From positions 1 to 38,909 of the IMG/VR virus record IMGVR_UViG_2630968766_000008: a DNA stretch of 38,909 bases. The stretch is one strand, 5' to 3'. The position numbers and the translations under genes were made by a program. The notes beneath the pieces were generated by a model. It was not told the DNA's origin, ran no database searches, and was given only the letters and a program-made list of their open reading frames with translations. How positions within the stretch are numbered: position 1 is the first letter of the stretch; every line of letters starts with the position of its first letter. Below are positions 36,901 to 37,459 of this stretch, piece by piece. The stretch is from a virus. Its lineage: Duplodnaviria; Heunggongvirae; Uroviricota; Caudoviricetes.

Positions 36901-37459
36901 GGCATTCTCCCTGACACCTGACGGAAAGCTGACTGCTAAAAATGCGGATATCAGTGGCAGTGTGAATGCGAACGCCGGGACGCTCAACAACGTCACGATT
37001 AATGAGAGCTGTACTATTAAGGGGATGCTTGATGCTAACCAGGTGCGTGGTGATTTTGTAAAAACGACAGGGCATCGATTTCCGCACCCCGGAGAATACC
37101 CACAGGGTTCACTTACCGTTCATATTAAGGACGATCATGCCTTTGACAGGCAGATTATAATTCAACCAATCATGTACGGTGCGCCACCATATTTTAGTAG
37201 AAATGATGGCGCTAATATCTACGATACCTGCAGATTAATTGTGCGCAAAAATGGCAATGTAATCTATGACAAATCCACTAGTGGTTCGAAAAGGACAACA
37301 GTCGTGTACAGCAATATCATTGATATGCCAGTGGGGGACGGAGATGTAATATTAACATTTGAAGTTCAGTCGAGCGGCAGTGGAGAGCCCAGAACATGGA
37401 TCAGTGATTTAATGGTCTCGGTAACGAAAAAAGCCGCATCCGGTATCAGTATCAGTTGA
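33983..37459 (+). CDS. J: Host specificity / central tail fibre protein J
   Basis: 1158-aa, N-terminus [42 protein letters not shown] as in lambda J; C-terminal ~120 aa are AT-rich and diverge. Confidence 0.9.

Follow-up and report, generated by a model that had tools for sequence, protein, structure and literature searches.

The window analysed here is the whole 38,909-nt stretch, positions 1 to 38,909 of IMG/VR virus record IMGVR_UViG_2630968766_000008, and all features described below lie on its plus strand unless stated. Gene J (33983..37459), which encodes the tail tip and central tail fibre protein, is an intact ORF of 1158 aa with 82% amino acid identity overall to lambda J (BLASTP, aligned end to end). 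Pfam domains follow one another along the protein in the order FNIII-A_GpJ, Phage-tail_3, Ig_J, Ig_J_second, Phage_Tail_Tip and Ig_GpJ_C. The first part of the gene, covering the hub domains and two FNIII/Ig domains (33983..36442), has approximately 95% nucleotide identity to lambda in 60-nt windows, and residues up to approximately 820 are near-identical to the lambda J protein. A single blastn match spanning L, K, I and most of J (31910-36479) corresponded to lambda 13409-18002 at 91.7% identity, bearing out an earlier sequence-only reading of this DNA, which had described these genes as nearly lambda-like. The downstream neighbour of J is lom (37529..38128), an ORF for an Ail/Lom outer-membrane beta-barrel protein that was identified through the RefSeq annotation of an identical stretch in strain 64EVA. 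An antisense ORF of 472 aa (35669-37087, minus strand) also lies inside J, its upstream end coinciding with the point at which GC content drops; it is most likely spurious, a product of GC-rich codon usage on the sense strand.

The sequence-only reading had taken most of J to be nearly lambda-like. This held up to approximately position 36440 but overlooked a second non-lambda segment, block A (36443..36860), which probably covers the alpha-helical shaft and upper fibre region, is 26 aa longer than its lambda counterpart and has just 12-67% identity to lambda, with gaps, in 60-nt windows. From the published domain description of lambda gpJ (PMC11101478), block A would occupy the position of the AHS region. 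It is approximately 94% identical at the nucleotide level to many lambdoid phages (PhiR42_1, ev243, cdtI, mEp332 and others), and it sorts independently of the receptor-binding domain (RBD) discussed below, as three loci with the same RBD (L043-L045) carry another allele of the block. The phenylalanine in the motif GQTFINE (approximately 36750) is the counterpart of lambda J F924, mutation of which leads to escape from the Gifsy-1 HepS abortive-infection nuclease (PMC13043305). Since this residue is retained here, the present J would be expected to trigger HepS.

The C-terminus of gpJ sets receptor choice, which is LamB for lambda (PMC11101478) and OmpC for A8 and 1A2 (PMC11338833). In the present J, residues 1038-1158 (37094..37456) matched the PF12421 Ig_GpJ_C domain with an E-value of 5.6e-31 and 107.8 bits, well above the curated cut-off of 26.2 bits. 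The domain sits at the extreme C-terminus, after the tail-tip fibre region PF09327, and the ORF ends with it at residue 1158. In the PDB, A8 gpJ gave the best sequence match (9wca, E 6.5e-58), followed by lambda gpJ (8xcj/8iyk, E about 1e-46 to 3e-46). AlphaFold2 modelled the C-terminal 185 residues as an all-beta sandwich (mean pLDDT 79.4), for which the top Foldseek matches were 8xcj_F (5.4e-18), 8xck_F (8.2e-18), 9wca_F (2.8e-17) and 9wcb_F (8.1e-17), with query-normalised TM-scores of 0.62-0.69. The first two of these structures are the lambda RBD, LamB-bound and closed respectively, and the last two are the A8 RBD, closed and OmpC-bound.

Within this shared fold the amino acid sequence is strongly diverged. 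Alignment with lambda J and other J variants, the check proposed with the sequence-only reading, gave 45% identity to lambda over the last 143 aa (LDANQVRGD...GISIS), 49% to A8 and 49% to the cdtI/mEp460 class. Thus, the claim that the C-terminus does not resemble that of lambda J was right as to divergence, but the two belong to the same PF12421 family and have the same predicted fold. We compared the domain with a panel of RBD alleles from loci retrieved out of GTDB species-representative genomes and IMG/VR contigs, plus lambda and strain 64EVA. The panel fell into about ten classes with 33-63% mutual identity, and with none of its lambdoid classes did the allele of this prophage exceed 47% identity. 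Identity to the 1A2-like class was about 45%; the supplementary 1A2 gpJ sequence of PMC11338833, which contains OCR damage and frameshifts, served only to recognise that class. On these comparisons, the domain is a distinct allele class of the gpJ C-terminal RBD, with no more than 49% identity to the lambdoid RBD classes examined.

One candidate for a closer allele, GTDB locus L034 ('Kitasatospora', 69% in its best segment), was rejected because it is actually lambda DNA with a frameshift. Lambda J was also present in GTDB assemblies labelled Pseudomonas, Shewanella, Bradyrhizobium, Oceanobacillus, Desulfosporosinus, Kitasatospora and others (among them L013-L023, L025-L027 and L034). These loci all fell in lambda's own RBD cluster (at least 85% identity) and many were on contigs with coverage of approximately 1-2, so they are almost certainly contaminating lambda DNA.

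We investigated where in the domain the divergence lies. In the J model, long loops join the strands at four places (residues 59-68, 95-108, 128-131 and 159-169; numbering begins at AFSLTP), with a short, conserved turn (DDH, NG or MPxGxG) between each loop and the next. Predicted loop L1 (37076..37105) has an indel relative to every other allele; L2 (37184..37225) also has indels, together with the variable sites R100K, N101K, D102Y and G103D; L3 (37283..37294, the TSGS/K region) has an insertion relative to other alleles just downstream and a K130R polymorphism; and L4 (37376..37408) has indels and an E162D/N polymorphism. All between-allele indels fell inside the four predicted loops, where identity was 19-30%, compared with 46-62% elsewhere. 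Against the lambda RBD, the predicted loops were 19% identical and all four differed in length. In lambda gpJ, four distal loops (L1-L4) are inserted into LamB (PMC11101478). The four long loops of the model probably lie together at one end of the sandwich and would be the corresponding distal loops, an orientation deduced from the alternating strand topology rather than by superposition on 8xcj.

A neighbour-joining (NJ) tree of 13 RBD alleles, built on about 150 columns, placed the present allele apart from the A8/1A2-like OmpC clade, the two Citrobacter classes, the cdtI class and lambda. It grouped instead with the RBDs of a family of AT-rich prophages described below (bootstrap 0.925). 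The domain lacks the close identity to lambda, above all in the contact loops, that would mark a LamB-specific allele, and it lies outside the A8/1A2 clade.

Divergence alone is no proof of a changed receptor, because A8 and 1A2, which share only about 60% identity, both bind OmpC. A divergent allele might therefore still recognise LamB, perhaps a LamB variant of its natural hosts, with its specificity unchanged and its fold and scaffold residues held in common with the lambda RBD. We consider this improbable, given that identity to lambda is just 45% over the domain and 19% in the predicted contact loops, each of which has a different length, and that in the NJ tree the allele is no nearer to lambda than the OmpC binders are. 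The receptor is thus probably one other than LamB, judging from the RBD alignments. Our best guess is another trimeric porin (OmpC- or OmpF-like), because in both solved complexes a trimeric RBD docks on a trimeric porin. A more speculative idea, which we hold only tentatively, is that the clade formed by this allele and the AT-rich-family RBDs recognises a receptor new for J-type RBDs, being neither LamB, OmpC nor OmpF. A 2026 receptor-prediction preprint was rejected as a guide in these matters, since its scope is Drexlerviridae-type GpJ and lambda-type RBDs fall outside it.

The divergent end of J also differs in base composition. The GC fraction ran at approximately 0.57-0.66 in the body of the gene and at 0.40-0.46 over 37000-37500; the last 396 nt of J had a GC content of 0.439 and a GC3 of 0.42, compared with 0.568 and 0.67 for the rest of the gene. 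The observation that GC falls sharply over the last ~120 codons was therefore correct, the value for 37080-37459 being 0.434. By comparison, the lambda RBD is not AT-rich (GC 0.55, GC3 0.62). Among 380-nt windows of the late region (20000-37000), 37080-37459 ranked in the lowest 2% for GC, and over all 38,909 nt it ranked in the lowest 9%. The drop thus stands out sharply against the tail genes, but stretches as AT-rich as this also occur elsewhere in the window, in its early region.

We looked for the source of this low GC content among relatives of the domain. In a search of 5.8 billion proteins, the closest non-self relative of the RBD was P0002, with 61% identity over aligned positions and 57% over the full length, encoded on a contig (L046) of 40.5% GC. 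An IMG/VR scan with P0002 recovered about 20 contigs of approximately 35 kb with GC of approximately 0.415, each with a J-like tip protein of 1249-1261 aa. The RBDs of the family on these IMG/VR contigs had 50-54% identity to the RBD of this prophage and a GC content of 0.42-0.46. As integrated prophages, members of the family occur in 55 of the 5426 complete E. coli genomes; the one in E. coli 23CRST001 (L071, 3001145-3040924) adjoins ycdY/csg and carries a serine recombinase.

Most genes of the AT-rich prophages (L046, L047-L065, L071) are hypothetical. Their uvsW-like helicase has 84-85% nucleotide identity to Krischvirus (RB49-like) T4-type phages, and beyond this gene the family had zero megablast matches in the phage collection. 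A T4-like origin of P0002 had been a candidate, as uvsW on its contig is 83-89% identical to that of Krischvirus, but was rejected because searches of IMG/VR and E. coli genomes placed the contig in the AT-rich integrated prophage family, which merely carries a uvsW-like helicase.

The cassette plausibly came from the RBD pool of the AT-rich lineage, which would account for its low GC content. This is meant at the level of the lineage, because the search for a donor sequence found none and the best DNA match to the AT-rich family was 77% over 113 nt. Alternatively, the drop in GC could be a general trait of RBD alleles, for instance through loop-rich sequence with much Asn, Ser and Lys, and so be uninformative about foreign origin. 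Most non-lambda lambdoid RBD alleles are indeed somewhat below the J average, at GC 0.48-0.54. However, the present allele is the lowest of the lambdoid set (GC 0.438 and GC3 0.41, in a set otherwise at GC 0.48-0.56), GC falls most at third codon positions (from 0.67 to 0.42), and the allele resembles in composition the RBDs of a prophage family of 41.5% GC, with which it also clusters. We therefore regard a general trait as a poor explanation, somewhat less probable even than the retention of LamB, and return to an imported RBD.

Conserved stretches bound the domain on both sides. Upstream lies an island at the end of the beta-prism fibre (36863..37063), which is 83-97% identical to lambda at 36863-36982 and would serve as the 5' crossover zone; matches to lambdoid phages that run from the start of J stop at 37012, 37025 or 37063. 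The junction of an engineered gpJ chimera, at lambda residue 964, lies in the same conserved stretch (PMC11338833). The following segment, 37064..37387 (GC 0.438), is the unique core of the RBD cassette and had zero DNA matches in 50,697 phage records (blastn). Phage matches resume at 37387, at approximately 83% identity, and take in the final 24 codons of J, the J-lom spacer and the start of lom. This second conserved stretch (37388..37530), the putative 3' crossover zone, is 83-85% identical to about 200 lambdoid phage records.

The same RBD allele, at 98.7% nucleotide identity or more, was carried by 23 of the 5426 complete E. coli genomes and by six IMG/VR contigs. At three loci (L043-L045), identity to this prophage over 36900-37500 was 98-100% in 100-nt windows, but only 17-67% in block A. 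In one of these (L045), lom was also a different allele (78-80%), identity falling from 100% at about 37500. The RBD thus occurs with differing upstream and downstream alleles, which rules out its being tied to a single set of flanks. The prophage of strain 64EVA (L002) shares only 31927-38909 with this one: its tail-tip module (L, K, I, J, lom and the start of stf) is 97% identical, the upstream sequence is unrelated (megablast), and the head and tail-shaft modules are unmatched. Because the allele recurs next to other shaft segments and another lom, we conclude that, as far as these alignments go, the RBD moves as a cassette, in the mosaic exchange of lambdoid tail-fibre specificity domains. 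The proposal of a swapped RBD is well supported on each of these points: the divergent stretch is the PF12421 RBD, its flanks are conserved, and the same cassette occurs on other J, lom and head backgrounds.

Two side observations concern the genomes in this comparison. ORF sizes and order upstream in the window suggest separate terminase, portal, protease and capsid genes, which are unannotated, and the 64EVA prophage has an annotated ClpP-like protease/major capsid fusion. In E. coli SM107, the J-RBD/lom stretch (99.4%) occurs both on the chromosome and on a separate 111-kb record belonging to that assembly (NZ_CP130669.1, 67621-68151), which could reflect a phage-plasmid, a duplicated prophage or an assembly artefact.

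Copies of the allele differ little in protein. The copies that have diverged furthest show 8-10 nucleotide differences, of which only 2-4 alter the protein, so the allele is evidently under purifying selection. The predicted loops, which account for 21% of residues, contained six of the nine amino acid sites that vary within the allele; the four adjacent variable sites in L2 may represent a single event. A decaying, non-functional remnant of a defective prophage, with its composition due to relaxed selection, is highly improbable: many E. coli lambdoid prophages are defective and this allele is rare, but the 1158-codon ORF is intact, its Pfam score is strong, its beta-sandwich model is confident, and the cassette is kept nearly unchanged across prophage backbones with mostly synonymous differences.

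Taken together, our reading, to which we give a probability of roughly 0.75, is that an RBD cassette acquired by natural exchange forms the 3' end of J (about 37064-37459) in place of a LamB-type RBD, and that the phage no longer uses LamB as lambda does. The N-terminal ~1015 residues of J would form a lambda-type tail-tip hub and central fibre, and the last ~143 residues an Ig-like RBD trimer, whose four distal loops would engage an outer-membrane protein and trigger opening of the tail. Homologous recombination in the two conserved stretches, one being the upstream island and the other the J stop and lom start, would have put another allele class of this domain family in place of the lambda (LamB) RBD. 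The incoming allele would derive from a low-GC RBD lineage otherwise found on J-like tip proteins of AT-rich E. coli prophages, giving rise to the drop in GC. The phage would then no longer adsorb to LamB, and the likeliest receptor would be another trimeric porin such as OmpC or OmpF.

This is an ordinary case of known phage mosaicism, and what is new is a rare, uncharacterised allele class of a known exchangeable domain. RBD swapping in lambda-like J is the known basis of host-range change and has already been used to retarget lambda-derived delivery particles from LamB to OmpC. Our understanding of the gpJ system is unchanged by this allele, which would illustrate how RBDs pass from one prophage lineage to another. 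As the class is absent from the 50,697 phage records, it would provide one extra specificity module for engineered lambda particles. The AT-rich prophage family is a possible reservoir of further RBD modules, and as such a modestly interesting lead. If its clade, together with this allele, did recognise a receptor new for J-type RBDs, this would point to recent flow of RBD cassettes between lambdoid phages and an otherwise unrelated prophage lineage.

Four known systems offer comparisons. The lambda RBD (residues ~990-1132; 8xcj/8xck; LamB) resembles the present domain in belonging to PF12421, in its position on a J backbone of ~95% identity, in its Ig-like predicted fold and in scaffold motifs (GD.VK, FP, DDH.FDRQ, NG, DMP.G.G and KK..GIS), whereas it differs in overall identity (45%), in identity in the predicted loops (~19%) and in GC3 (0.62 compared with 0.42 here). 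The gpJ proteins of A8 and 1A2 (Brödel et al., Nature 2024; 9wca/9wcb) are chimeras in which natural E. coli prophage RBDs of the same family were grafted onto lambda J at the same junction stretch, and this exchange of the part beyond lambda residue 964 is enough to switch the phage from LamB to OmpC (PMC11338833). However, with 49% (A8) and about 45% (1A2-like) identity and a separate NJ clade, their OmpC assignment is not transferable to this phage.

The tip proteins of the AT-rich family are the nearest relatives in the RBD (50-57% identity) and have similarly low GC, but they have a non-lambda J backbone, the fibre N-terminus of P0002 being different, and the L071 prophage has a different gene set. 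Gifsy-1 J of Salmonella is also a lambda-like J, in which the N-terminal ~964 aa are conserved and the C-terminal receptor-binding region is divergent; it belongs to another host genus, and the likeness is drawn from the published description rather than from a comparison of RBD sequences. Divergent only in that C-terminal region, Gifsy-1 J binds OmpC, BtuB and OmpX (PMC12312913).
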